The translations under genes were made by a program, and so were the position numbers. Shown here piece by piece: positions 5,485 to 25,625 of a stretch of 64,000 nt of DNA. Position 1 is the first letter of the stretch. Every line of letters starts with the position of its first letter. This DNA is from Gammaproteobacteria bacterium (GTDB lineage Bacteria; Pseudomonadota; Gammaproteobacteria; SG8-11). The stretch covers positions 7,250 to 71,249 of the forward strand of contig JAHECY010000007.1 in assembly GCA_024641505.1 (NCBI GenBank), given 5' to 3'. Below the pieces are notes generated by a model, which was given only the letters and a program-made list of their open reading frames with translations, did no database searches and was not told the DNA's origin.

Positions 5485-6606
5485 TTACTCCCTGTGGCGA
5501 CGCCGTTCTGCGGTCAACGGAGTACCCTGAAAACGCGGGCTGTTGAACAGGCCATAACCTTTGGTTATGGCCTCGCTAAAGAAAAAGTCGGGATCGAAAT
5601 TGACATCCTTCCATAGATACCAATCATCCACAGGGGTACCCGCATACTCCATCACGGTAATGGGACCACCGGGGAATTTACCGCGCGCCGTGACATGTTT
5701 GTCGACATGATCATGAAAAATAAAGCGCCCTTCTTTTTGGTTTGCCTCGATAATAGCGTCATACCGCTCGCCAGGACCGATGAGAATCGTGTCTACAGAA
5801 TATGGATTCGGCAACGGCAAGCCATCCTTATGAGTGATCAACATATCATGTCCATGAGAATGCATCGCGTGTATGCCGCCGCCTGCGCCGATAAAGCGCA
5901 CCCGCACCACATCGCCGGTCTTGATACGCAAGGGCTGGGTCATAGGAAAGGATTTGCCGTTGACTGAGAAATAGTCTTCGACATCACCAGGCGTAGAACC
6001 CGTGCCATATTTGTCGGCATTTGCGCTCTCCCAAGTGGACAGCATCATAATGGCCTCCTTGGTAACCCGCTTCTCTATGGGTAGTGGTTTCTTAGGATCA
6101 ACGATAATCGGCCCCCACATGCCCCGGATGCCAACATGTTCATTGACAGCGACATGGCAGTGATACCAAAGGCTGCCTATGCGATCCGCCTTCCAACTAT
6201 AAGTAAACGATTCCCCCGGTTCGATGGCCTTCTGCGTCACACCCGGGACACCATCGCTACGCCAGGAATTAGTTTGATACACTCCATGCCAATGAATGGT
6301 ATGTGACAACGAGGTGTTATTAGTCACTTGTACCACCACATCGTCACCCTCTTGCACATGGATAAGCGGACCGGGTACCTGTCCATTAAAGGCAAACACT
6401 TTATAACTGAGGTCAGCAGCGATCTGGATTTGCATTTCTTCGATAGTGAGCGCCATTTCGCGCTTTGCTGCTAATCCCGGAATAGCGACCAGCAATCCGC
6501 CCATCAATAGTAAAATACCGGCCAGGCGACGCTTATCTCTCGGTCGTCGACAGATTACAACTGATCGGGGTCTGTGTGAAATACATCCGCACCAACAGGA
6601 TTGCAT
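5485..6606 (-). CDS. Two-domain multicopper oxidase (blue copper oxidase, NcgA-like)
   Basis: Copper-binding HWHG and HCHVAVNEH...GMWG motifs. Tat-like RRLAGILLL N-terminus. GAGGAAA ribosome-binding site 9 nt before the ATG at 6606. Confidence 0.75.
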   Translation of the reverse strand: MQSCWCGCISHRPRSVVICRRPRDKRRLAGILLLMGGLLVAIPGLAAKREMALTIEEMQIQIAADLSYKVFAFNGQVPGPLIHVQEGDDVVVQVTNNTSLSHTIHWHGVYQTNSWRSDGVPGVTQKAIEPGESFTYSWKADRIGSLWYHCHVAVNEHVGIRGMWGPIIVDPKKPLPIEKRVTKEAIMMLSTWESANADKYGTGSTPGDVEDYFSVNGKSFPMTQPLRIKTGDVVRVRFIGAGGGIHAMHSHGHDMLITHKDGLPLPNPYSVDTILIGPGERYDAIIEANQKEGRFIFHDHVDKHVTARGKFPGGPITVMEYAGTPVDDWYLWKDVNFDPDFFFSEAITKGYGLFNSPRFQGTPLTAERRRHRE

Positions 6607-7149: not shown

Positions 7150-7929
7150 CTAGAATAAGTATGCATAACGAAACTGCCCTGATGACACGGCTTGCCGCTG
7201 CTTGAGCCCGGAACTGTATTCATACTCGAACCATTGATTTTTCAAACCCAAGGCAAACGCATTGCGGGAGTTTGGCGCAAATTGTACGTTAATCTCTGCA
7301 CCGCCCGCCAAACCGTCACCTTGCGCACCGTCGTTATCGCTGGTCTTCAATGGCAACAATCCCGCGGAGCCGAACAAACTCCAGCTTTCGGAAAAACTGT
7401 AGGTATAGTTGGCGCCAACACCGAGACCCATAATATTCGTTTTGTAATCGTCAGCCCACTTATTAGTGATAGTTTTAAGGTCTGCAAACAGCGATACCGA
7501 CCGCCAGACATAGTAGCCGGTTACCAAGTCGAGTTCAGTGCGGGCAATCGCGGTATCACCTTTGCGGTTGGTGGCGGTCGCACCATCCGGCCTGGCAAAA
7601 CCGGTCCCGGTAAAATTTATTTCGCCTGTTGCCGCGCTGCCACCAAGATAAAATCTCGCTTGTTGCCATTGCCAGGTCGCGCCCAACACATTACCTTCGC
7701 CGAAGGTGACTTTTTCGCCGTCGCTGCCCTGACCGCGTATTTCTGTGGTGAACCAGTTAAACTCCTGAAGTCGAATCCCGATACTGGTCCTGGCGGAATC
7801 CGCTGCAATAGCGTCACCGGCAACACCCGATGCAACGATCATCCACAACAAACGGCCCAGTCCCGGCATTTTTCCTCGGCCCATTGCTTTTATCGTATTG
7901 GTAGCAATACGTGCCACGATTGATTCCAC
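7150..7929 (-). CDS. Outer-membrane beta-barrel protein (MipA/OmpV-like size)
   Basis: Signal peptide (MPGLGRLLWMIVASGVAGDAIAADSA), alternating amphipathic strands and a C-terminal aromatic residue (…YAYLF). The start overlaps the upstream stop (GTG/TAG overlap), suggesting translational coupling. The true start may be an internal Met at about 7869-7884. Confidence 0.45.
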   Translation of the reverse strand: MESIVARIATNTIKAMGRGKMPGLGRLLWMIVASGVAGDAIAADSARTSIGIRLQEFNWFTTEIRGQGSDGEKVTFGEGNVLGATWQWQQARFYLGGSAATGEINFTGTGFARPDGATATNRKGDTAIARTELDLVTGYYVWRSVSLFADLKTITNKWADDYKTNIMGLGVGANYTYSFSESWSLFGSAGLLPLKTSDNDGAQGDGLAGGAEINVQFAPNSRNAFALGLKNQWFEYEYSSGLKQRQAVSSGQFRYAYLF

Positions 7930-8942
7930 TACAGCATCGGAAAAGGAATCATTGCGGCGCGCCTACCCGCAGGCAGCGCCGCTTCAGGTGCGGATCCGAC
8001 GTTTTGGCTGGAAGGTAATTTTACGGTTTCACTGTCACTGAAGTTACCGCCGGTGTCATGTTGGAAAATAAATTCGCCCAATTCATCACCTGCCCCCTGT
8101 AAAACACCGTTTTCCGGTACTTGATCGGTACTATTGGCAACGGCTTTCTCGACATTGTTGGATAGTTCGCTCAAGGTCATCATAGGCTTATGGTTGTTGG
8201 TCAATTCTGCGAGCAGAAAAAAGGTAAAGGGTGAATGCCCCGAATTCTGAAAACTGTCATCGACGAATTCAATACCACCGGCGGTTATAATCTGCACGCT
8301 TTTCTTGGCCGCGACTTTCCAGTAGTAGCGTTCCACTGCTGAATCTTGCCGCAATCCGCGCACGTCGGAACGCAACAAGCTGCCGCTGAAACAGGAATCG
8401 GCAATCAGTAAAGTATGTTGCGCCTTGCTGGCGATAATATTCATTTCATCGCGAATGATAGAATGTCGGATATAACTGCTGACATCAGTGCTATGGGCGT
8501 CCACCGGCACCCAGTAACCGCGCTGCGAGTCGCTTTCTAAAAATCCATGACCCGCATAGTAAACCAGAACACTATCGCCGCGCTGGACCTTGCGAGACAA
8601 ATCACCAAGCGCGTATAGAAGATCGCGGCGCTTCGCGTTTTCGAGCAACACTACATCGGTGAAACCATAACGGGATTTGAGAAGTTCGCCCATGGCGCGG
8701 GCACCCGTCACCGCGGTACGCAGGGATTGCCAATAATGGCCTGGATCCTGGTAGTCATCATTGCCTATGAGTAAGGCGCGGAAAGTTCCCAGCGTCAGTT
8801 TATCCTGAACTACGACGGCAGCTGACTCCAGATCAATACCACGATTTTCAGCGACACAGCAGGGCGTCAGTATCGTCAACGTCACCAGGTGTAAAATGAA
8901 ACGGGGCCATAGCATACAGTCTCTACTCACGACTAATAACAT
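7929..8942 (-). CDS. Secreted caspase-family (peptidase C14, orthocaspase-like) protein
   Basis: Caspase His/Cys dyad contexts YYAGHG and IADSCFSG. N-terminal signal peptide (MLWPRFILHLVTLTILTPCCVA). The ORF extends to 9002, but the start is placed at an internal Met. Confidence 0.6.
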   Translation of the reverse strand: MLLVVSRDCMLWPRFILHLVTLTILTPCCVAENRGIDLESAAVVVQDKLTLGTFRALLIGNDDYQDPGHYWQSLRTAVTGARAMGELLKSRYGFTDVVLLENAKRRDLLYALGDLSRKVQRGDSVLVYYAGHGFLESDSQRGYWVPVDAHSTDVSSYIRHSIIRDEMNIIASKAQHTLLIADSCFSGSLLRSDVRGLRQDSAVERYYWKVAAKKSVQIITAGGIEFVDDSFQNSGHSPFTFFLLAELTNNHKPMMTLSELSNNVEKAVANSTDQVPENGVLQGAGDELGEFIFQHDTGGNFSDSETVKLPSSQNVGSAPEAALPAGRRAAMIPFPML

Positions 8943-9433
8943 TATTATGCGACCCGGCGCTGGATTGCCGACCACGTTGACGGTCGACCTTCTGGAATCC
9001 AACTATGCGGGAACTCTCTTGTGCCTTGCGGCCTGCCACGTCGCACCCGCCCTGGGCATCCGACACCAAGTATTGCGCGCAATTATCGCACTGCGCCACC
9101 CGATTTGCCAATATCAATCTAGATCCTTAAGGGCTTTATCGATTTAAATATGTCCGCATCAGGCAATTAGTCTATCAGCTTCAAATGACACCCCATGGCT
9201 TGCCGCCTCATGTGCGGCAAGCAAATGGAATTATTAATGTGGAAAACGCAAAGATGACTCGAGGACAACGCCATATCGCTACATCAAACACACTCCGGCG
9301 GATACCATCCGACACCAATCCACAGAATCAGGGCAATCGTTATGCACAAATACCACTGGACATTATTTGTAAACATGATGATCACTGGTACCGCATTTGC
9401 AGGTGACACCACTTGTGCACCTCCGCGGAAGTC

Positions 9434-11623
9434 TCATGCGCGCATTCCGCCCTGTTCCCTGTCGTGAATCAACTTGACGACAATTTCAGAAAACTGGTCG
9501 ATGTTGATGGGTTTGGTTAAATATTCGTCGAAACCCGCCTTGAGACCGCGATCGATATTCACGGGCGTGGCATCAGCACTTACCGCAACAACCGGGATAG
9601 ATTTTGTGATCGGATCGCTACGCAATTTGCGCAAAATATCATACCCATCCGCCGCTCCCGCAAAGTAGACGTCAAGCAATATCAAGTCAAAATTGTGGGC
9701 ACGAATCATCTCCATGGCGAGCGTGGCATTGTGCGCATCGTAAAAGTGGATGCCGTGAATTTTTCTCAACACACTGGAGACCAAACGAAGATTAGCGGGA
9801 TTGTCCTCGACATAGAGAACGTTATGTTCATGATCCAGGCTGCCAGGTAAAACTGTGGGCATACTCTCCGTTTTGGTCTGCGGCAATTCGTGAGCGATAT
9901 TGAGCTCAATAAAAAAGCATGAACCCTCACCCTCTACGCTGCTGAATCCAACTTCTCCCCCCATCAACTCGACGAGTCGCTTGACCAGAGAGAGACCAAT
10001 GCCCGTACCATCCACTTGGCCCACGTCTGCATTGAGACGATCAAAAGGATCATAGACGCGATGCTGCATGGCTAACGGTATGCCGGATCCGGTATCGGAC
10101 ACGAAAATACGATAACGGTTCTCCTTGGCCTGACAACTAAGCTCTACAGTGCCGCATTCACGGTTATATTTTACGGCATTCGACAGCAAATTAAGCATCA
10201 CCTGCTTAAGTCGAACGCGATCGGCAAACACCATGACTGGCGTTGCCTTCCCCGGAATGCTCAGGGTGATGCCGTTCTGGTCTGCTAGCGGCCTGATAAG
10301 AGCGATACACTCGTCTACTAATTCATTGAATTCCACGCCTTCCATGGTAAGCTTCATATTGCCCGACTCGATACGCGACAGATCCAGTACTTCGTTTATC
10401 AGGTTCAGCAAATGCTGGCCGCCCTTCAATATTTCATCAATGCAATCAATATCATCGGCATCGAGATTATTGTTCTTGTTTTGTTTAAGCAACTGACCGA
10501 ACCCCAGGATGGCATTCATGGGTGTGCGCAGTTCATGGCTCATGCGTGAAAGAAATTCTGATTTTGCCTCATTGGCCCGTTTTGCCTGTTCCATCGCCGC
10601 CACCGCCTCCTCGGTACGCTGAAGTACACGCACTTCCAGTTCCATATTAACATTTTTCAATGCATCTTCAGCGGCGCGGATTCGTGTGATATCACGGATG
10701 ATGGTCGAATAATACAGCACCTTGTTCTGGGTGTCCTTGTGACCGAGAATGAGCTGAGAAACCTGCAATTCATTGCCGTTAGCGTCCAGCAACGCTATTT
10801 CGCCGGTCCAGGATCCCAACTGCGCGGCAGCGGGTAAACCTTCATTGATGACGATATTTCTTGCCCATGGAGGATGGAAATCCTGAAGCTGCACGGCGTT
10901 GAACTTCCAATCGTTCACACCAACCATAGAGCGTCCGGCCTGATTGAGATAAATAATATTTCCTTGTGGGTCCGCCATACCCACTAGATCCGTGGTAGCT
11001 TCCAGAATGGAGAGCATGCGCTCTTTGTCTTGTTCCAACTGGTTTCGATGCACGACTTCGCTACTCAAAGCAGCATTGGCCTCATGCAGGCGAACAGCTA
11101 ACTGCTGCAGATGGAGGGTTTCTTTCCGGTACAGAGACAATAGCCTGGCAACGCTACCCAACATGACTCCGATGAGCAACACCGCACCACCCAGTTGCAT
11201 GGCAAATATCCGGATATGCGCATGTACGACATCAAGATCTTTCTGCAGTGATAACGTGGCATTACCAGTATAGGAATAGGCGATGACAACATTACTGCTA
11301 ATGACCTGGTCACTTTTTTTGGTATCGGCCGATTTGTACTGGCTTAACACAAAACCGTTTTCCGCCGATAGCTGCAGCACCTGAACTTGCGGATCAGCAC
11401 CCCCCCAGTGTTGGAGAAGTTCGCTGGTATGCTGGTAATTTCCCTGCTGCAGATCATTTTTAACGAGTGAAGCCAGCAGATCGAGTTCATTCTGCGCAGC
11501 TTTCCGCTCGTCATCCATTTCATGCCGCCAGCGATCGTGCACCAGATAAACGTAGCCCAACACCAAAAACACAATCACCACTGACGTGATTGATCCGAAC
11601 GAATGAGTAAAGCGATGGATCAT
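9434..11623 (-). CDS. Hybrid sensor histidine kinase (periplasmic/TM - PAS - HisKA - HATPase_c - receiver)
   Basis: N-terminal transmembrane segments, H-box LSRMSHELRTPMNAILGF, G-box DTGSGIP, and a C-terminal receiver domain (LILLDV...KPINIDQF). Confidence 0.8.
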   Translation of the reverse strand: MIHRFTHSFGSITSVVIVFLVLGYVYLVHDRWRHEMDDERKAAQNELDLLASLVKNDLQQGNYQHTSELLQHWGGADPQVQVLQLSAENGFVLSQYKSADTKKSDQVISSNVVIAYSYTGNATLSLQKDLDVVHAHIRIFAMQLGGAVLLIGVMLGSVARLLSLYRKETLHLQQLAVRLHEANAALSSEVVHRNQLEQDKERMLSILEATTDLVGMADPQGNIIYLNQAGRSMVGVNDWKFNAVQLQDFHPPWARNIVINEGLPAAAQLGSWTGEIALLDANGNELQVSQLILGHKDTQNKVLYYSTIIRDITRIRAAEDALKNVNMELEVRVLQRTEEAVAAMEQAKRANEAKSEFLSRMSHELRTPMNAILGFGQLLKQNKNNNLDADDIDCIDEILKGGQHLLNLINEVLDLSRIESGNMKLTMEGVEFNELVDECIALIRPLADQNGITLSIPGKATPVMVFADRVRLKQVMLNLLSNAVKYNRECGTVELSCQAKENRYRIFVSDTGSGIPLAMQHRVYDPFDRLNADVGQVDGTGIGLSLVKRLVELMGGEVGFSSVEGEGSCFFIELNIAHELPQTKTESMPTVLPGSLDHEHNVLYVEDNPANLRLVSSVLRKIHGIHFYDAHNATLAMEMIRAHNFDLILLDVYFAGAADGYDILRKLRSDPITKSIPVVAVSADATPVNIDRGLKAGFDEYLTKPINIDQFSEIVVKLIHDREQGGMRA

Positions 11624-12489
11624 TTTTCCGACCGCCGTAGTACAGCATTTACCGCCTTGATCATTTCGCGCAGCTCATCGTAATCCGTATTTTTTACCGG
11701 TACCAGGGCAGTGAGTTTCGGGTGCATTCTCTTGAGAATCTCTGCCCCACCTGGTTTGCCTGCCAGCTGTAGCATGGCTTGGCGTAGTTTCATAATATCC
11801 TCTGCCGGTAAATTGTCGCGTGCGACAAAAAGGTGATCCGGTACGCCCGGAGTTATGGCGATGGCCCGCAAACCTTTTGCTTCGAATTCATCAAACACTT
11901 CTTTTTTCATAGCGCCTGCATCATAGTCACCCGCGAGAATTCCCAGAGCCACATTTTTATGTGATCCAAGGAAGTGATAAGTGCCGGGTGATCCCTTCGG
12001 AATTCCGGCGGCTATCAGCATGTAACGGGGGACGATATGGCTCATGGTGGATTCCGGATCGCCAAAAGCGAAACGTTTATTTACCAGTTCTGTCAGGCTC
12101 GAAAAAGAACTATTCGCGCGCACCGCAATTACACCAAACAGCTTAGGGTTTCCAGCTACTTCAAAACGTGCTAATAGCGGTTTTTCGCCGTAGCGCTCAA
12201 CAACATTGATATAGGGTGCTGGGCCCATAAAGGCGATATCTACCTTATTCTCTCCAATAGCTTTAATATGCTCATCATAATTTCCACCAACACGAATCTG
12301 TATCTGTCGTCCTAACTGGTCTGACAGGTAAGCGGCGAATGGCCCAAATCGCTCCTGTATCTCCGGCAAAGGTAGATAGGGGTGGACAGCAAGCACCAAT
12401 GCTTGGTCGGCCGCCACTACAGGCGCGCCGGGTGCCATGACACAAAAAGAAATCAGAGCAGCTATAATATGGTAGACGGTTATTCTCAT
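11620..12489 (-). CDS. Periplasmic substrate-binding protein, PhnD/SsuA-like (ABC-type phosphonate-binding fold)
   Basis: Signal peptide, 289 aa, motifs as in PhnD-family binding proteins. Its stop overlaps the hybrid histidine kinase start by 4 bp (operon). Confidence 0.6.
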   Translation of the reverse strand: MRITVYHIIAALISFCVMAPGAPVVAADQALVLAVHPYLPLPEIQERFGPFAAYLSDQLGRQIQIRVGGNYDEHIKAIGENKVDIAFMGPAPYINVVERYGEKPLLARFEVAGNPKLFGVIAVRANSSFSSLTELVNKRFAFGDPESTMSHIVPRYMLIAAGIPKGSPGTYHFLGSHKNVALGILAGDYDAGAMKKEVFDEFEAKGLRAIAITPGVPDHLFVARDNLPAEDIMKLRQAMLQLAGKPGGAEILKRMHPKLTALVPVKNTDYDELREMIKAVNAVLRRSEK

Positions 12490-19561: not shown

Positions 19562-20905
19562 TCAATCTCCGGAAGGTATCAATAGAGTGACAGTCGTACC
19601 CGCGCCAGGCATACTTTCCAGTTCTATGTCGCCCTGATGCTGTTCCATTATTCGCTTCACGATAGGCAGTCCCAACCCCACCCCGAAACTCCTGGTGCTA
19701 AACATGGGTTCGTAGATTCTGGCACACACCTCCGGTTTAATACCCAGAGCATTATCGACAAATCGAATGGCAATCTTGCCATTGATGATTTCCGTCGTTA
19801 CGGACAGTTGCGCATGGTAACCCGGCTCCGCTATCCCAATACGTTCCACCAAGGCCTGACATGCATTATCAAAGATATTGATCACGGCTCGGGTCATCAA
19901 GTCCGGATCAACCGCGATCACCGGGTCAGCGCTGCTTCGGTTGCGAACCAGTTCAATATGCTCCGGTAAGGACTGATCTGCAAGAACGTCATCCAGCCAG
20001 TGATCCACCGGAAGATATTGCAGATTGAGTGGACGAGTGCGAGAATAATCCAGCAGTTCATCGATGATGTGGTCGCAACGCGTGACGCTGCGTTCAATCC
20101 GTTCCAGGGCGTTAAGGGTTTTTTCATTCAGCGCCGCGCTGTCTTTGCGTATAAAGTGCAGCGAGGGACGTATGCTACCCAAAGGATTGCGCAATTCATG
20201 ACTTACGGTAGCGGTGATTTGGCCTAATGCCGCCAGTCTTTCCTGTTGAAGCAATTGAGCCTGTGTGTCGCGCAGCTTCTGGGTCCGTTCCGTCACCAGT
20301 TCTTCAAGATGTTCACGATAGTCTCGCAATTCCGCTTCGGCCCTTTCCTGCTCCGCCAACTGGCGTTGGCGTTCTATTTCCATGGCAATACGCTGGCCAA
20401 AGATTCGCAACATGTCGTGATCCGCTTCTGTGAACTCATGCGCCCGGTCATCCAGCAGGCAGGTAACCGCCAGCACCTGACCGTCACTGCCCAACGCCGG
20501 GAATCCACAGTAAGAATACGCGTTATGCTGCTTGAGAAAATGGGCTTCGGGAAACCGTTCCATCACCTTGTCATATACCCGATAGTCTTTGGTTTGTTCC
20601 ACTGTCGCGCATGGCGTCACATGTAAATCACATTGGCCGGCGTTGAGAAACATTTCACCTTGAACATAAACACTGAGAAAATACAGCTTGTCACCGCGTA
20701 GTTCGGATAGACACACCACTTTGACATCGAGCAATTGACCGATCATGCGCGCGGCAAGCTCAAAAACTTCCATTGGATTGCCTGACAAAATCATGCTGAG
20801 TTCATATAATTTCTTCAACCGGGTGATTTCATCCGCTGGCGACACCACCGGTTGCAACGGCTCGATTGCCGGAAATTGTATGAGGGTCTTCTGAGTGGCG
20901 GTCAT
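19562..20905 (-). CDS. Cytoplasmic GAF-domain sensor histidine kinase
   Basis: HisKA H-box ATVSHELRNPLGSI and HATPase_c (GVGLGLPIVKRI). No transmembrane segment. Start chosen at the Met with an AGGAA ribosome-binding site (the ORF extends to 20980). Confidence 0.7.
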   Translation of the reverse strand: MTATQKTLIQFPAIEPLQPVVSPADEITRLKKLYELSMILSGNPMEVFELAARMIGQLLDVKVVCLSELRGDKLYFLSVYVQGEMFLNAGQCDLHVTPCATVEQTKDYRVYDKVMERFPEAHFLKQHNAYSYCGFPALGSDGQVLAVTCLLDDRAHEFTEADHDMLRIFGQRIAMEIERQRQLAEQERAEAELRDYREHLEELVTERTQKLRDTQAQLLQQERLAALGQITATVSHELRNPLGSIRPSLHFIRKDSAALNEKTLNALERIERSVTRCDHIIDELLDYSRTRPLNLQYLPVDHWLDDVLADQSLPEHIELVRNRSSADPVIAVDPDLMTRAVINIFDNACQALVERIGIAEPGYHAQLSVTTEIINGKIAIRFVDNALGIKPEVCARIYEPMFSTRSFGVGLGLPIVKRIMEQHQGDIELESMPGAGTTVTLLIPSGD

Positions 20906-21249
20906 GTCGGTTCCTGAAGCTGAGCACTCCCTCGCCTGAATATTGCTGCAAAACCAATATTTAACACCATTGCAGCACAATCTGACTTATTTTTATATCA
21001 GATGCATTTCTTAGTCCAATAACAAATAAGGAATAAAGGTAATAAAGCGTTATAAAGTGTTATATAGTATTGACGATTGAGCGACACTAAGGTGCGGTGG
21101 TCAAGGAAGTCTTGTTGCGCGTCGCTCGGAGGGTGTCCTGTTCAACACGGCCCCTGTGTTTTAAAATATTGTTTTATAACATATTTTTTAAATACCGTCC
21201 TGCTTACGGACGCGTTCCCATCGGCGCCATCCGTAAGCGAACCGTAGCT

Positions 21250-21615
21250 TCAATTCAGCAGCTTTGCGATGTCATCAGCAGCACGCTTAACATCCAGGAA
21301 CACCAGTCCCAGCTTCGCCTTGGGCTTAGCCAATACAGTCACTACGGCTTCTTTTCCCGCCTGTGTCATCACCACATAGCCATGATCCCCCTTGATCAGG
21401 ATCTGTTCGAGGTTGCCGCGGGTGAGCTCATCAGCAGTGCGATCACCCAACGACAGCATGGCAGCGCTCATCGCACCCATTTTGTCTTCATCCAGAGATT
21501 GTGGCAACACTGCGCCGATCGTGAGACCATCCATGGAGATGACCGCGGATGCTTCAATATCCGGGGAAGTACCGTTCAGTTCGCTTAGAATTGAACCTAT
21601 CATTTGGTTTCGCAT
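21250..21615 (-). CDS. Roadblock/LC7 (MglB-like) domain protein
   Basis: 121 aa. SAVISMDGLTIGAV and ...GDHGYVVMTQAGKEAVVTVLAKPKAKLGLVFLDVKRAADDI match the roadblock fold consensus. Confidence 0.7.
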   Translation of the reverse strand: MRNQMIGSILSELNGTSPDIEASAVISMDGLTIGAVLPQSLDEDKMGAMSAAMLSLGDRTADELTRGNLEQILIKGDHGYVVMTQAGKEAVVTVLAKPKAKLGLVFLDVKRAADDIAKLLN

Positions 21616-21778
21616 GGTGATCGCTCCTGGTTGCTTACAATCGAACTATTTTGTTTACTACTTCACGGTTAGCTAATTTTCACTATCTACAGTTTTTAAT
21701 TATATTGCCTAGCAAAACCGATGCCTGATGTCGCGTCTTCTTCCCCATATCGTTTATTCTGGCAGTGATATCTCTGCA

Positions 21779-22351
21779 CTAGTGTTTGCCGTCATAAGCA
21801 GCAGCAAGTTTCTCGAACAATTTTTGACTCATTCCAGTGATGGCCAGGAATTTGTCTTTAACTTCCGTTATCGACGCCTGATACGAGGCTTGCATGATAA
21901 TCAAGGAAAATCCCAGACTGGCATTCAATGCCTGAATCATGGCCACGCAGGTTTTGGCGTCATTACCGTATACCTGCGGCACCAGCCGGTAAAGCTCATT
22001 CGCTATCAAGGTAGTGCCACCTGCCATGAATTCAGCGGGTAAATCGACTTGCACATGCACACATCCCACGGTATACATCTGCGCCACATAGGACACATCG
22101 TATCTTCCAGTGACGACCCTTTGCAGCCAATTCACATGAGTTTTTTTCAGATGCTCCACCCTGCCCTCAATATACGGTAAAGCATTGGGAATTTTCTGCA
22201 GCGTGCCATAAAACTTGTCAGTTATCTCGACCAGATACGGCTCGAGACGTTTACCTTCAGCGGCTATCAGTGCCTCCCTTTCCGGGGTGAGATCCGCGAA
22301 TACCTTGGCATAAAGTCCCAGCGCACTATACTCATTATCGGTCAATTCCAC
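21779..22351 (-). CDS. Stand-alone sensor globin (protoglobin / globin-coupled-sensor type haem domain)
   Basis: Colinear similarity to the HemAT sensor globin. The distal Tyr context ITDKFYGTL matches VDAFYKNL. The proximal His context VGCVHVQVDLPAEFMAGG matches IASIHLRIGLLPKWYMGAF. Start set at a GTG with a GGGAGGAAG ribosome-binding site after the upstream stop (the ORF extends to 22444). Confidence 0.6.
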   Translation of the reverse strand: MELTDNEYSALGLYAKVFADLTPEREALIAAEGKRLEPYLVEITDKFYGTLQKIPNALPYIEGRVEHLKKTHVNWLQRVVTGRYDVSYVAQMYTVGCVHVQVDLPAEFMAGGTTLIANELYRLVPQVYGNDAKTCVAMIQALNASLGFSLIIMQASYQASITEVKDKFLAITGMSQKLFEKLAAAYDGKH

Positions 22352-22374
22352 CGCTTCCTCCCGCTTTTCATCGT

Positions 22375-23016
22375 CTAATGAGTTGTATGATAGCGCACAC
22401 TTAATACCCAAATCAGTTGCATCAACGCCGGCTGATTCAGGCAAGGCATGCCTTCCACTGCCAACACGAATCGATGTTCACCAATATAAAGCGGCCAAAA
22501 ACCGATCTGACTATTGCCGGCGGCATCCACCAATGCCCACGCACTGGTCGACATATCCAGATCTCGGGTTAGCAGGTTCATATGGCGCTCTTGAAGAGAC
22601 GCCAGGTCCGCTGTAAGCGCGGACAGTTCCTCGACATACTCTTGATCAAATCCGTGACCGGAGATGTAAAATCCCTGGTAATCCGCCAAAAGCACCTTAC
22701 CATTTCCGGACAAAGGGATAAGCAGATCAGGCAGCAACGCCTCTAGATTACCCTGAGGCGCATATTGCACTTCGGGTGTACCTTGCACCCATCCCAGTTT
22801 CTGCAACCGTTTTAGCAGTACCGTGGCTTCGGTTTCATCGTCAATTCCTGACCACGTCTGCACGCCTTCAAGCGTCAACAATGGACTGCTGGCGCATTGC
22901 ATCAGTGACTGCAAAAGTCTTTGAGGCGGGGCCGATGATGGCCTGGACACCGCGTAGTACGCGCCGGAAGGCGTGGGCAGGAGATAAAGATCTTCGAGGA
23001 TACGGCGTTGCTCCAT
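22375..23016 (-). CDS. Hypothetical protein. The C-terminal half may be a roadblock/longin-like fold.
   Basis: 213 aa, no recognisable motif. 25 bp from the upstream gene and overlapping or adjacent to the globin gene. Confidence 0.4.
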   Translation of the reverse strand: MEQRRILEDLYLLPTPSGAYYAVSRPSSAPPQRLLQSLMQCASSPLLTLEGVQTWSGIDDETEATVLLKRLQKLGWVQGTPEVQYAPQGNLEALLPDLLIPLSGNGKVLLADYQGFYISGHGFDQEYVEELSALTADLASLQERHMNLLTRDLDMSTSAWALVDAAGNSQIGFWPLYIGEHRFVLAVEGMPCLNQPALMQLIWVLSVRYHTTH

Positions 23017-23041
23017 ACAAATATTATTTTTGCCTCCAGGT

Positions 23042-24529
23042 TTACGACTGACCCTTTATCCGTGTATACAACCGTTTCAGAATACCACCGGCTCTATCGC
23101 TGGACAGGTCATCATCCACCATGATTTCCGGTTCTTCCACTGTCAGCACCCTCGCGGACACTGCGACATTCTCGTCACCGCGTGTTTGTCCAGGCCTGTG
23201 CAGGTTGACTGATTTGACAAAGCCCAATGCTTTAGCCGCGCTGTAAAAACTGAATATATCCTGCTGCGAGACATCTAGCAACTGCAATGTCTGAACTAAA
23301 GAGCAGGGTTGCTGGTGCCATAATTCGGCGATCGTCCGCAGGCTGTCGCCAAGACCAAAGCGTTCCGCGTCAGGCATGTGTTTCAAATAAAATTGACCCG
23401 TGATATCTGTACCTATAGGGATGCGACCATGGGCGGCGCGCATAGCCAACTCCCATAATACAATATCCCAGTCCAACAGGACGCCGGACGCCTCGGTTAT
23501 CATTTGGTGTCGGGAGTTGGACAATATTGAAATTTTGATATTGTCGTTATTGATCGGTACCCGGCCCACTGCGTACAGGGCACGCTCATTATGCTCGATC
23601 AGCACCTTCCGATCATCATATAAAATGATCAGTGACTGTACCTGGGCTTCCAGCAATACATTCTTCTTACTGGTATATGATAAATTGAGCGCCTTCTTCA
23701 GATAGCCCTGCAAGTAATATTCAGGATTATAAATCACGTGAACGAGATCGCTGGAATTCGGCAATCCGACCGCAGGATGCACATTTCCCGTGGACTCGTG
23801 TTCCACCGGCGCTTTTTCTTCCACATCGACTTTGCTACTTTGGGCCGAGCTTGACGCCAAAGCAGGTGTCAGTCCGGTGAGCCCAATTTGTTCCGGCGCT
23901 GGCGTTGTGTTCACGAAAATTCGCGGCTGCGCCGTTGGCGCCACCGTTTCGGCTGAAGGCAGCGCAACTTCCGCACCGGCCAACTTCGCCATCACGCCGG
24001 GCAGTTCCGCTACCTGCAATTCATTTTCCAATATCGGAACAGTCACACCCCAGCCGCCCACTGAAGCAACACTTCTAGGGGGTGGCGTACCTGTCGCGCC
24101 CCGCACTCGTCTTTGAGACTGAACGGTACTCTGCTTCGAGGGGCTACCCTCGAAATTAATGATATTTGATGCCGATTTTTGTTCTCCGGCACGCAACTGA
24201 GTGGCGCGCGCGGCCTGCGCATCGTGAAGTGCGCGTTTCAGCAGCTCGGGTTCCACTGGCTTACGCAAAACCATCGCGTGCTCGGAGCTAAAAGCATGGA
24301 CCGATTGCACAATGGAGGGTCTTCCGGGAAATTGTCGTTGAATACGCGTCCATTCCGCCTGCCCGGTCACTCCATCCAGGTCTACCAAATTGATATCGGC
24401 GTCACCGTTTTCCGCAATTGCATATTTTCCAGCACAAGGTCCTTTGAAAAAAATACGCAGGATATTGATATTCTGCTGGCTCATCCCGATGGCCGTAACC
24501 CGCACCTGCTGATTGTTATCACGCATCAT
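23042..24529 (-). CDS. Hypothetical protein with a degenerate receiver-like N-terminal domain, a Pro/Ala/Ser-rich linker and an unknown ~250-aa C-terminal domain
   Basis: REC-like features: the strand-3 Asp context INLVDLDG and the alpha5 signature VLRKPVEPELLKRAL are present, but the N-terminal acidic pair is absent. A low-complexity linker follows. Confidence 0.45.
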   Translation of the reverse strand: MMRDNNQQVRVTAIGMSQQNINILRIFFKGPCAGKYAIAENGDADINLVDLDGVTGQAEWTRIQRQFPGRPSIVQSVHAFSSEHAMVLRKPVEPELLKRALHDAQAARATQLRAGEQKSASNIINFEGSPSKQSTVQSQRRVRGATGTPPPRSVASVGGWGVTVPILENELQVAELPGVMAKLAGAEVALPSAETVAPTAQPRIFVNTTPAPEQIGLTGLTPALASSSAQSSKVDVEEKAPVEHESTGNVHPAVGLPNSSDLVHVIYNPEYYLQGYLKKALNLSYTSKKNVLLEAQVQSLIILYDDRKVLIEHNERALYAVGRVPINNDNIKISILSNSRHQMITEASGVLLDWDIVLWELAMRAAHGRIPIGTDITGQFYLKHMPDAERFGLGDSLRTIAELWHQQPCSLVQTLQLLDVSQQDIFSFYSAAKALGFVKSVNLHRPGQTRGDENVAVSARVLTVEEPEIMVDDDLSSDRAGGILKRLYTRIKGQS

Positions 24530-24608
24530 GGTACCGACTCCTGGATAATGAATTTTTGATCGTATCCTTACCCAACATCCGGGGCTGCTTACCCGATGTT
24601 TAAACTCC

Positions 24609-25130
24609 TTATGGCCAATCTTGTTGCCGCATTTTACGAATAAGTACGTTTTCCACCAACCCCGAATTTCCCACCAAGCCTTTGGTCAGCACGGAGCGCG
24701 GCGCGGCCGGCATCGGCGTCATGGCGGTAATCCCCCCAATCAGGTGCTGTTCGAGCACCTGCAGGGTCTCCGGGCGTAACACCGCTGCGCATTGGCGCAA
24801 CACCCGTTTGCGCAGCGTCAATCCTTCCTTGCCCAGCGCAATAAACAAATCCAGTACCGCCCCATAGGTACCGTCAATGTCGTCATACACGCGGTTGACG
24901 TTGATGCGTTGCACATGCACACGCAAATCATTGGGTACGCGCGCAACATGGTGCGCAAGATAGTCACGGGCTTTGTCACTCCAATTCGCCACATTCAGAT
25001 AAAGTGCTTTGTGGCCCGAAATAATAAAAGCGGGTTCGACGACAACTTCAACATCACCGATTACACGCGCCAGTTCGACGAGTTTCTCGGCATTGCGAAG
25101 AAACAATTCCGCGGGAAGGGGTCGACTCAT
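24609..25130 (-). CDS. Hypothetical protein, first gene of the putative operon
   Basis: 173 aa from the Met with an AAGGTG ribosome-binding site (the ORF extends to 25166). No family recognised. Confidence 0.4.
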   Translation of the reverse strand: MSRPLPAELFLRNAEKLVELARVIGDVEVVVEPAFIISGHKALYLNVANWSDKARDYLAHHVARVPNDLRVHVQRINVNRVYDDIDGTYGAVLDLFIALGKEGLTLRKRVLRQCAAVLRPETLQVLEQHLIGGITAMTPMPAAPRSVLTKGLVGNSGLVENVLIRKMRQQDWP

Positions 25131-25625
25131 AAAATAACACCTTTTATCGAGTATATAGACGAGCACCTGTTACAAGTATCTGATTTAGCAGTCGAATCTT
25201 AACATCGCATTAAGAATCACATTATCCCACTCGCATGAGTGAAATACAGGCAATCATGTATTAATTTATTTGTGGGTTTGTGGCAAGAAGGTGTCTATCT
25301 GTTGCAACTTCACAAATGCTTTACCGACCATAATCCATGGAAAAGCGCCGTCACCGAAATCGGATGATCACTGGCCATCTCAACCTTCCAATCATCGGAC
25401 CCGTGTTTATCGTTACCACACCCGACCCGGTAGTGATTTGTCAGTCGCCGCCACGCCCGGACCGTACTTGATTACGTAATAACATTCTGCAGACACCGCC
25501 AACATTTGATATAACCAGTAAATATTAGCTCATCAATAATTTGACGGTGACGCACGACATGACCGATAAATTGTGACTTAGATAACAGTTTACGACCAAA
25601 CTTACCGTGACACTGGGATAAATAA

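Follow-up and report, generated by a model that had tools for sequence, protein, structure and literature searches.

A roadblock/LC7 gene cluster with a stand-alone sensor globin in a gammaproteobacterial contig, a probable derivative of the Group 3 MglA/MglB systems

Gene content of the cluster

We analysed 64,000 nucleotides (nt) of contig JAHECY010000007.1 (GenBank assembly GCA_024641505.1), from a gammaproteobacterium of the lineage SG8-11; this whole stretch is called the window, and positions are counted within it. The window carries a cluster of five co-directional genes on its minus strand, which encode, in order, proteins of 173, 495 and 213 amino acids (aa), given the working names g1, g2 and g3, followed by a stand-alone sensor globin and a roadblock/LC7 protein (Table 1). 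In our reading, to which we assign a probability of about 0.6, the locus is a derived cluster of the Group 3 MglA/MglB type, which has lost its GTPase gene and has a stand-alone sensor globin between its roadblock genes.

The five co-directional open reading frames (ORFs) reported in the initial annotation are all present on the minus strand with the same coordinates. The ORF of g1 is open upstream as far as a GTG at 25166, and the orthologue on contig L002 begins at the equivalent Met. The GTG start of the globin gene is preceded, at 7-8 nt, by the Shine-Dalgarno sequence GGGAGGAAG. Successive genes, from g1 to the roadblock gene, are 79, 25, 23 and 163 nt apart, and no two of them overlap. 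The operon first proposed from short gaps or overlaps thus stands as a conserved unit with short gaps, but without the overlaps, and its structure is deduced from spacing and synteny. Scans of the window for Rfam families and tRNAs returned no matches, and the PADLOC defence-system models gave no meaningful match.

The two closest relatives of the window, which carry paired labels (L001/L008 and L002/L009), share its arrangement. Contig L001 spans g2 to the histidine kinase gene that follows the cluster, while contig L002, from the metagenome-assembled genome (MAG) UBA6920, spans g1 to the kinase and also includes genes for an Rrf2 regulator, a receiver (REC)-kinase fusion, a cNMP-binding protein and an aminotransferase, all in the order of the window. 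Synonymous sites are saturated among the three sequences (proportion of synonymous differences, pS, 0.7-0.9), and the ratio of non-synonymous to synonymous differences (pN/pS) is 0.055 for the roadblock gene, 0.14-0.17 for the globin, 0.17-0.27 for g3, 0.21-0.27 for the kinase and 0.42-0.48 for g1 and g2. Because the gene order recurs in two genomes with saturated synonymous sites and pN/pS of 0.05-0.48, and the core of the cluster in about 80 further species loci, the arrangement is not due to chance. Non-synonymous change is constrained in each gene, and the cluster genes and the kinase are therefore functional; the genes that remain in the cluster are under purifying selection.

The globin matches the Pfam family Protoglobin (PF11563) with an E-value of 2.3e-20 and 73.6 bits, against a cut-off of 25, and its matches in the PDB are the globin domain of AfGcHK (5ohe, 1.8e-10), Tlr1989 (4.5e-8) and GsGCS (6e-8), which bears out the HemAT-like sensor-globin identity first assigned to it. 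The distal Tyr (in 'DKFY') and the proximal His (in 'GCVHV'), both described earlier as conserved, align with the corresponding residues of AfGcHK (5ohe), and both are invariant among 18 orthologous cluster globins, in which the invariant elements are FY, TH..W, VG..HV and ITGMS. The last of these belongs to an extra C-terminal helix past the globin fold, 'ITGMS..LF..L', which is strongly conserved in the same 18 sequences. The product ends approximately 25 residues beyond the globin fold. As had been noted, it carries no output domain: Protoglobin is the sole domain found, and Pfam detected no fused transmitter (kinase, GGDEF, MCP or STAS) in the 190 aa. On these sequence features the cluster globin is an S-family sensor single-domain globin, and not a globin-coupled sensor, because a fused transmitter domain is absent. 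It shares with the sensor domains of AfGcHK (5ohe), GsGCS (2w31), Tlr1989 (8h17) and HemAT (1or4) the Pfam family, the distal Tyr, the proximal His and a Tlr1989-like C-terminal helix. Unlike them it is not fused to a kinase, cyclase or MCP domain, and in the genome it is partnered by roadblock proteins.

The 121-aa protein is a roadblock/LC7 protein, as originally called (Pfam Robl_LC7, E 1.1e-14), with PDB matches to an Asgard roadblock protein (7f8m, 1.5e-25), CvnB5 (1.6e-7) and MglB (0.008). It is encoded by the best-conserved gene of the cluster, with 70-83% identity among distant loci. The product of g3, listed at first as being of an unknown family, proved to be a second roadblock/MglB-like protein, with a helical, winged-helix-like domain of about 85 aa at the N-terminus and a roadblock/LC7 domain (approximately residues 88-209) at the C-terminus. 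The g3 family, which has no Pfam annotation, numbers at least 990 proteins (50-79% identity), and 301 gammaproteobacterial species-representative genomes, among them Chromatiales, Methylococcales, Methylophaga, Thiodiazotropha, Sedimenticola and tubeworm symbionts, encode relatives. Comparison of the g2 and g3 families with hhalign gave no relationship (probability 0.4%).

The AlphaFold2 model of g2, built from 150 sequences, has two domains (residues 9-119 and 259-440) with a predicted local distance difference test score (pLDDT) above 90, joined by a linker with a pLDDT of about 40 that cannot be aligned between orthologues. The N-terminal domain is modelled as a receiver fold, and g2 has no match to Pfam Response_reg (PF00072). 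Residues D52, S76 and K90-P91 are nearly invariant across the g2 family and are all present in the window, in which the acidic pair is absent (S17/Q18); position 17 is Asp in 73 of the 150 family members. The earlier description of a receiver that keeps the strand-3 Asp and the KP signature and has lost the acidic pocket therefore holds for the window lineage, and the N-terminus of g2 in this lineage is best called a pseudo-receiver. The protein is likely to serve as a scaffold or output protein, whose output would consist of DNA binding or partner recruitment.

An exhaustive HMMER search (E<=1e-3) found 1049 representatives of the g2 family, clustered at 50% identity. A word-indexed search returned far fewer relatives: two close ones with g2 alone, contigs L001 and L002, and three close orthologues with a 14-sequence profile. 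The Pro/Ala/Ser linker probably swamps the word filter of the index search, and 'rare' verdicts on linker-rich proteins are probably unreliable there. For ten of these g2 relatives the names of the proteins in their identity clusters were looked at, and all were 'hypothetical protein' or unnamed.

The product of g1 has a helical core without detectable relatives, and gave no match in Pfam, NCBIfam or PADLOC, in agreement with its initial listing as a protein of unrecognised family. Its orthologues stand first in the cluster in nearly all related loci. Canonical members end in a TPR tail of about 70 aa (Pfam TPR_14, 4e-5; PDB profile match to TPR repeats, 2.7e-8), which also gives weak FimV-C and PilW-like matches; g1 of the window has no such tail. 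The possibility that g1 is a degenerate GTPase was rejected, since it has no P-loop, does not resemble the cluster GTPases of related loci in tblastn or blastp, and has its orthologue in the first gene of canonical loci, a gene separate from that of the GTPase.

Table 1. Positions of the cluster genes, the domains of g2, the adjacent kinase gene and two conserved non-coding blocks in the window.
Feature	Position	Strand	Remarks
g1	24609..25130	-	ATG start, 173 aa; first cluster gene
g2	23042..24529	-	495 aa; 'DUF' (domain of unknown function) of Group 3 MglA systems
g2, receiver-like (pseudo-receiver) domain	24173..24505	-	residues 9-119
g2, Pro/Ala/Ser-rich disordered linker	23765..24172	-	residues 120-255; pLDDT 37-57
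g2, C-terminal conserved alpha/beta domain	23210..23755	-	residues 259-440; last three helices and strand winged-helix-like
g2, degenerate WPN[FLM][TS]R motif	23360..23377	-	MPDAER, residues 385-390
g3	22375..23016	-	213 aa; second MglB-type protein
Stand-alone sensor globin	21779..22351	-	GTG start, 190 aa
Roadblock/LC7 (MglB-type) protein	21250..21615	-	121 aa
GAF-HisKA-HATPase histidine kinase	19562..20905	-	Pfam; cytoplasmic; 447 aa, likely from ATG at 20905
Conserved non-coding block GTTAAGATTCGACTGCTAAATCAG	25180..25203	-	50-73 nt upstream of the g1 start; intergenic with the divergent Cys-less Rrf2 gene
Conserved block TTTGTTATTGGACTA	21012-21026	-	shared by the three intergenic regions between roadblock and kinase genes, some 105-120 nt before the kinase start

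Related loci and the Group 3 MglA/MglB systems

Hidden Markov models (HMMs) for six families were built and then scanned against 80 fetched loci, those closest to the window. Nearly all of them have the order g1-g2-GTPase-g3-[globin]-roadblock, and in 72 of these 80 loci a small GTPase gene separates g2 from g3. In distant loci (Thiocystis violacea and two MAG lineages) the series runs from a g1-like protein (241-247 aa) through a g2-like protein (410-429 aa) and a GTPase (179-190 aa) to g3, an optional globin and the roadblock protein. The cluster GTPases exceed the Pfam cut-offs of ATP_bind_1 and Ras and have the motifs GPVGAGKTT (G1), GTPGQ (G3), T(K/Q)xD (G4) and (V/I)DAR (G5). Their G4 often lacks the Lys, and their G5 has the 'DAR' hallmark of Groups 2 and 3; those of L003, L005 and L007 read TKMD/TQTD at G4 and EVDAR/EIDAR at G5.

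The Group 3 MglA systems of beta- and gamma-Proteobacteria were defined computationally by Wuichet and Søgaard-Andersen (2015; PMC4316618) as an MglA homologue with deviant G4 and a G5 'DAR' together with one or two MglB homologues. In their DUF a variable linker connects a receiver-like N-terminus to a C-terminal region that contains a winged helix, and Table S2 of the same paper lists 'DUF>MglA>MglB>MglB' in Methylomonas methanica (Metme_1347, GTPase of 179 aa), Methylomicrobium, Neisseria, Acidithiobacillus and Teredinibacter. The points of agreement are as follows: g2 is their DUF, g3 and the 121-aa protein are their two MglBs, the taxonomic range is shared (Methylomonas and Methylomicrobium occur in both), the GTPases of homologous loci have the G5 'DAR', and Methylomonas loci L055-L061 have exactly the DUF>MglA>MglB>MglB arrangement. 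The initial annotation had proposed a candidate undescribed module; g2, g3 and the roadblock gene instead belong to this published system. For the 495-aa protein, the pseudo-receiver and the Pro/Ala/Ser linker stand, but it can no longer be called unknown, as it matches the published receiver-like/linker/winged-helix DUF.

The window differs from the published system in having no mglA, a sensor globin between the two MglB genes, an extra first gene (g1) without its TPR tail, and a degenerate WPNxTR motif in g2. The DUF architecture and two MglB homologues were thus found in it and a GTPase of the MglA family in the cluster was not; the agreement in GTPase motifs and taxon was judged on homologous loci only, by motif rather than by tree placement. 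Because the GTPase is present in about 72 of 80 homologous loci and absent here, the window is regarded as a derivative and not as a complete member of Group 3. The text of PMC4316618 does not mention g1, TPR, globin or haem, and g1 is a fifth conserved component that is absent from that account. No biochemical work on a Group 3 system turned up in our literature search, nor any paper for the relevant locus tags; the only functional data found are the colonisation and twitching phenotypes of an orphan mglB of Snodgrassella. Three features appear to be unreported, namely the recurrence of the globin as an accessory, g1 as a component, and the convergent loss of GTPase, TPR tail and WPNxTR described below.

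The globin gene is present in 17 of the 80 loci, most of which keep the GTPase. In 16 of these 17 its place is between g3 and the roadblock gene, and in the remaining one (L079) it comes after the roadblock gene; the 17 loci are scattered over several branches of a tree of g3 and roadblock sequences. The globin is hence an optional accessory of the cluster. Other ligand-binding proteins occur at or beside the same place. In L080, a Methylophaga MAG, the g3-roadblock slot (approximately 9592-10344, plus strand) holds a Phosphonate-bd (PBP-like) protein of 244-251 aa (2.9e-18) in place of the globin. In a clade without globin and GTPase (clade B below), a gene for a hemerythrin-domain protein of 144-149 aa (PF01814, 8.8e-11) lies just after the roadblock gene and convergent with it, at L041:2537-2983, L042:9094-9540 and L070:10373-10819, all on the minus strand; its product may be an analogous O2/NO-binding partner. 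Because of the Phosphonate-bd protein in the Methylophaga slot and the hemerythrin beside the roadblock gene of clade B, the position between the roadblock genes suggests a modular input, or 'sensor slot'. In Thiocystis violacea (L003:8221-9084) the roadblock gene is followed by genes for a 156-aa protein without Pfam match and a 120-aa CZB (chemoreceptor zinc-binding) protein, a pair that may be another lineage-specific sensory add-on.

The initial annotation knew of no description of a globin combined with roadblock genes, and for the cluster this holds: the literature search yielded only HGbRL, a globin-roadblock fusion of Methylacidiphilum infernorum (PMC4476040). HGbRL likewise couples a haem globin to Roadblock/LC7, and a ligand-driven conformational change has been proposed as its signal. 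However, HGbRL has both parts in one polypeptide, and its globin belongs with HGbI (38% identity) rather than with the Protoglobin/S-family; it is confined to one verrucomicrobial genus, and no Group 3 cluster surrounds it.

Some loci depart from the common layout. In L025, L027 and L080 (Methylophaga/Methylophagaceae) the cluster is split into g1-g3-roadblock and, about 1.3 kb further on, g2 and the GTPase gene, with g2 duplicated in L027 and L080. L083 and L087 are two full copies of the cluster from one MAG (JBNKPX01), so that paralogous copies can coexist, which bears on the question of a borrowed GTPase discussed below. Finally, L044 is a contig binned as Acidimicrobiales (Actinomycetota) with an otherwise gammaproteobacterial cluster, owing to either a binning error or horizontal transfer.

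Loss of the GTPase gene and possible modes of signalling

As the initial annotation had stated, the locus has no GTPase gene: tblastn with three cluster GTPases found no homologue in the 64-kb window, nor in L001 or the 21-kb L002 locus, and the gap between g2 and g3, where the gene would be expected from the other loci, is 25 nt long. Seven of the 80 fetched loci also lack it in the cluster, which with the window makes eight; L015 was left out as ambiguous, as no GTPase was seen there but the contig is short and its genes are split. On a neighbour-joining tree the eight fall into two separate clades. Clade A (the window, L008, L009, L014 and L021) has the globin throughout, and its sister clade has both globin and GTPase; clade B (L041, L042 and L070) has no globin. 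The GTPase gene thus appears to have been lost from the cluster twice.

Two other features are missing from the same loci. The TPR tail of g1 is absent from all six GTPase-less loci in which g1 is present (in the alignment, from all five GTPase-less rows), and only three GTPase-keeping loci are without it (L044, L051 and L077). In two of the latter, from tubeworm endosymbionts (L051:10276-10851 and L077:10094-10684), a tail-less g1 has been relocated after the roadblock gene with the GTPase kept, an exception to the correlation in one direction. The WPN[FLM][TS]R motif of g2 is degenerate in all eight GTPase-less loci of both clades and intact in 70 of the 72 GTPase-containing loci, the other two having WPS/WPD variants. 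In addition, the g2 linker is longer in GTPase-less loci, with ORFs (complete on their contigs) of 459-599 aa, versus mostly 380-470 aa elsewhere. From this sequence comparison we infer that the TPR tail of g1 and the WPN surface of g2 are the GTPase-dependent parts of the system. Since the near-universal TPR tail and WPNxTR have decayed in both GTPase-less clades, the GTPase-linked constraint seems to have been lifted, and the GTPase layer would truly have been dropped in the window lineage.

Under the reading of the locus as a derived Group 3 cluster, the ancestral order would have been g1 (TPR), g2 (receiver-like/winged helix), small GTPase, g3 (winged helix and roadblock) and roadblock. 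The globin would bind haem through its invariant proximal His, with the distal Tyr helping to sense O2, NO, CO or redox state, and it probably lets the cluster respond to oxygen or nitric oxide. A ligand-dependent change in the globin dimer and the ITGMS helix could then be relayed by protein-protein contact to g3 and the 121-aa roadblock protein, much as sensor globins drive fused transmitter domains. In the ancestral system the roadblock pair would set the nucleotide state of the MglA-like GTPase, which would engage the TPR tail of g1 and the WPNxTR surface of g2. In the window lineage, which would be without this GTPase layer, g2 and the core of g1 are probably direct targets of the roadblock pair, g2 being the likely output. 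We propose only tentatively such a GTPase-independent relay, in which, under the influence of O2 or NO, the globin directly gates the g3-roadblock complex, which acts on g2 and so on transcription or on a partner kinase. If this relay exists, the two GTPase losses and the accompanying decay of TPR and WPNxTR would mark the GTPase-contact surfaces of the Group 3 system. The genes for the GAF kinase, REC-kinase, Rrf2 and cNMP-binding proteins are lineage-specific neighbours, whose products may feed in from outside the conserved module.

Several points weigh against this picture. The 80 loci are those closest to the window, and their frequencies are biased accordingly; the g3 and roadblock tree was built without bootstrap support; an association scan for g3 or roadblock residues that track the presence of the globin gave nothing convincing; and promoter and terminator consensus scans gave hits at chance level only. 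Moreover, of the positions at least 95% conserved in GTPase-containing loci, the roadblock protein of GTPase-less loci keeps 62 of 65 and g3 keeps 40 of 43, which fits a retained GTPase partner. The gene for such a GTPase could lie elsewhere in the source genome, as the search for it covered the 64-kb window.

These last points lead to the alternative that the locus is still part of a GTPase switch: the cis copy of mglA alone would be lost, and the globin-gated roadblock pair would regulate an MglA-family GTPase, of Group 3 type or other, encoded elsewhere. The low pN/pS of the roadblock gene, together with its conserved positions, agrees with this. Orphan MglB genes and pairs are common (e.g. 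Metme_2245, '<MglB<MglB') and can be functional, as in Snodgrassella, and some genomes hold two copies of the cluster (L083 and L087). This alternative does not readily account for the convergent decay of the g1 tail and the g2 motif, otherwise near-universal, in both GTPase-less clades, and no homologue lies in the window or in the L002 locus; we regard it as possible though doubtful.

The polarity module of Myxococcus xanthus (MglA, MglB, MglC, RomR/RomX) offers a comparison for the GTPase-based form of the system. The roadblock paralogues MglB and MglC resemble the pair of g3 and the roadblock protein, the receiver and long low-complexity linker of RomR resemble those of g2, and SgmX, a TPR effector of MglA-GTP, recalls the TPR tail of g1. 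However, g2 has no detectable sequence relationship to RomR, nor g1 to SgmX; the M. xanthus partner genes are not all clustered and no haem sensor is known there, while the window has no GTPase.

In another model, close to that of the initial annotation and modelled on conservons, the globin and the roadblock proteins would be sensors and adaptors for the adjacent GAF kinase, as a GTPase-free haem-based two-component input. In the window, L001 and L002 the kinase gene does come directly after the roadblock gene, despite saturated synonymous sites. The actinobacterial conservons (CvnA-D) likewise join a roadblock protein to an MglA-family GTPase and a histidine kinase, with optional accessory sensors encoded in the operon, including a haem protein (the P450 CvnE) and a GAF protein (CvnF). 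There, the kinase CvnA works with the roadblock protein, CvnF8 has been shown to modulate the kinase, and orphan roadblock genes flanked by conservon genes point to loss of mglA in those systems too. The conservons, however, belong to another phylum, and the roadblock protein is the only shared component. The window has no CvnC (no Pfam match to DUF742 at E<=1 for the five cluster products or the kinase), no GTPase and no membrane kinase of the CvnA type, and its accessory is a globin, encoded beside the roadblock genes and not beside the kinase. Its kinase is a soluble GAF-HisKA-HATPase protein without the membrane/HAMP architecture of CvnA, which ends at the ATPase domain and has no C-terminal LPxR extension. 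The receiver-like domain of g2 in this lineage also lacks the acidic pocket. Furthermore, the window, L001/L008 and L002/L009 are the only loci in which the kinase gene follows the roadblock gene; it is absent from L014 and L021, the sister loci without GTPase and with globin, and from all 75 other loci. The gap of 344 nt that separates it from the roadblock gene is AT-rich and contains a conserved block of its own (Table 1), which suggests a separate promoter. The link between cluster and kinase drawn earlier is therefore weak, and this model is quite unlikely. The restriction of the kinase gene to three close relatives ruled out the kinase as a core component; it is possibly a lineage-specific partner, and its membership in the module is doubtful.

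That the globin is an enzyme or ligand buffer (e.g. for NO or O2 detoxification, a role discussed for protoglobins) that happens to be co-transcribed with the roadblock genes is very improbable: it is a single domain without transmitter, and protoglobin-type globins are reported to have nitrite-reductase and peroxynitrite-isomerase chemistry in vitro (PMC4020757), but it recurs between roadblock genes on several tree branches, the nearest solved structures are the sensor domains of globin-coupled kinases and cyclases, its extra C-terminal helix is strongly conserved, and other ligand-binding proteins take or adjoin its position in other loci.

Hundreds of beta- and gammaproteobacterial species, among them methanotrophs, sulfur-oxidising symbionts, Neisseria and Xanthomonas, carry Group 3 MglA/MglB systems. 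For a derived Group 3 cluster such as the one proposed here, the recurrent globin slot provides the first concrete hypothesis for the input of these systems (O2, NO or redox), and tractable organisms for it exist, e.g. Methylobacter luteus IMV-B-3098, the source of L079. The two lineages with natural deletion of the GTPase gene amount to an evolutionary experiment that points to the TPR tail of g1 and the WPNxTR of g2 as GTPase-dependent surfaces, and they raise the question of whether roadblock signalling can proceed without a GTPase. For the field of haem sensors, the cluster would add a case of a sensor globin that signals in trans to non-enzymatic adaptors.

Neighbouring genes and non-coding blocks

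The flanking genes first listed were recovered by Pfam, namely a GAF-HD-GYP protein, a Cys-less Rrf2 regulator, a REC-kinase fusion, a cNMP-binding protein and the GAF kinase, whose length of 447 aa is that of its two orthologues. Only the window and its two closest relatives have the Rrf2, REC-kinase and cNMP genes beside the cluster; L014 and L021, which are without GTPase and with globin, have a DEAD-box helicase and a SulP transporter as neighbours instead.

Two conserved non-coding blocks were identified (Table 1). The block GTTAAGATTCGACTGCTAAATCAG, upstream of g1, is approximately 24-31 nt long and nearly identical in the window and L002 (8829-8845) despite the saturated synonymous sites; the window has one copy, and zero are expected by chance. 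The block may serve as promoter or operator of the cluster. The second block, TTTGTTATTGGACTA, suggests that the kinase has its own regulatory region.

Elsewhere in the window, on the minus strand, a gene for a Phosphonate-bd binding protein (11620-12489, 9.4e-64) overlaps by 4 nt that of a PAS-HisKA-HATPase-REC hybrid kinase (9434-11623); together (9434-12489) they resemble a sensor pair of binding protein and kinase, and the protein in the slot of L080 belongs to the family of this binding protein. No link to the cluster was found for two further minus-strand products, a multicopper-oxidase-type protein with three cupredoxin Pfam matches (5485-6606), presumably the 'NirK' of the initial annotation, at whose link no test was aimed, and a caspase-domain (Peptidase_C14) protein (7929-9002).

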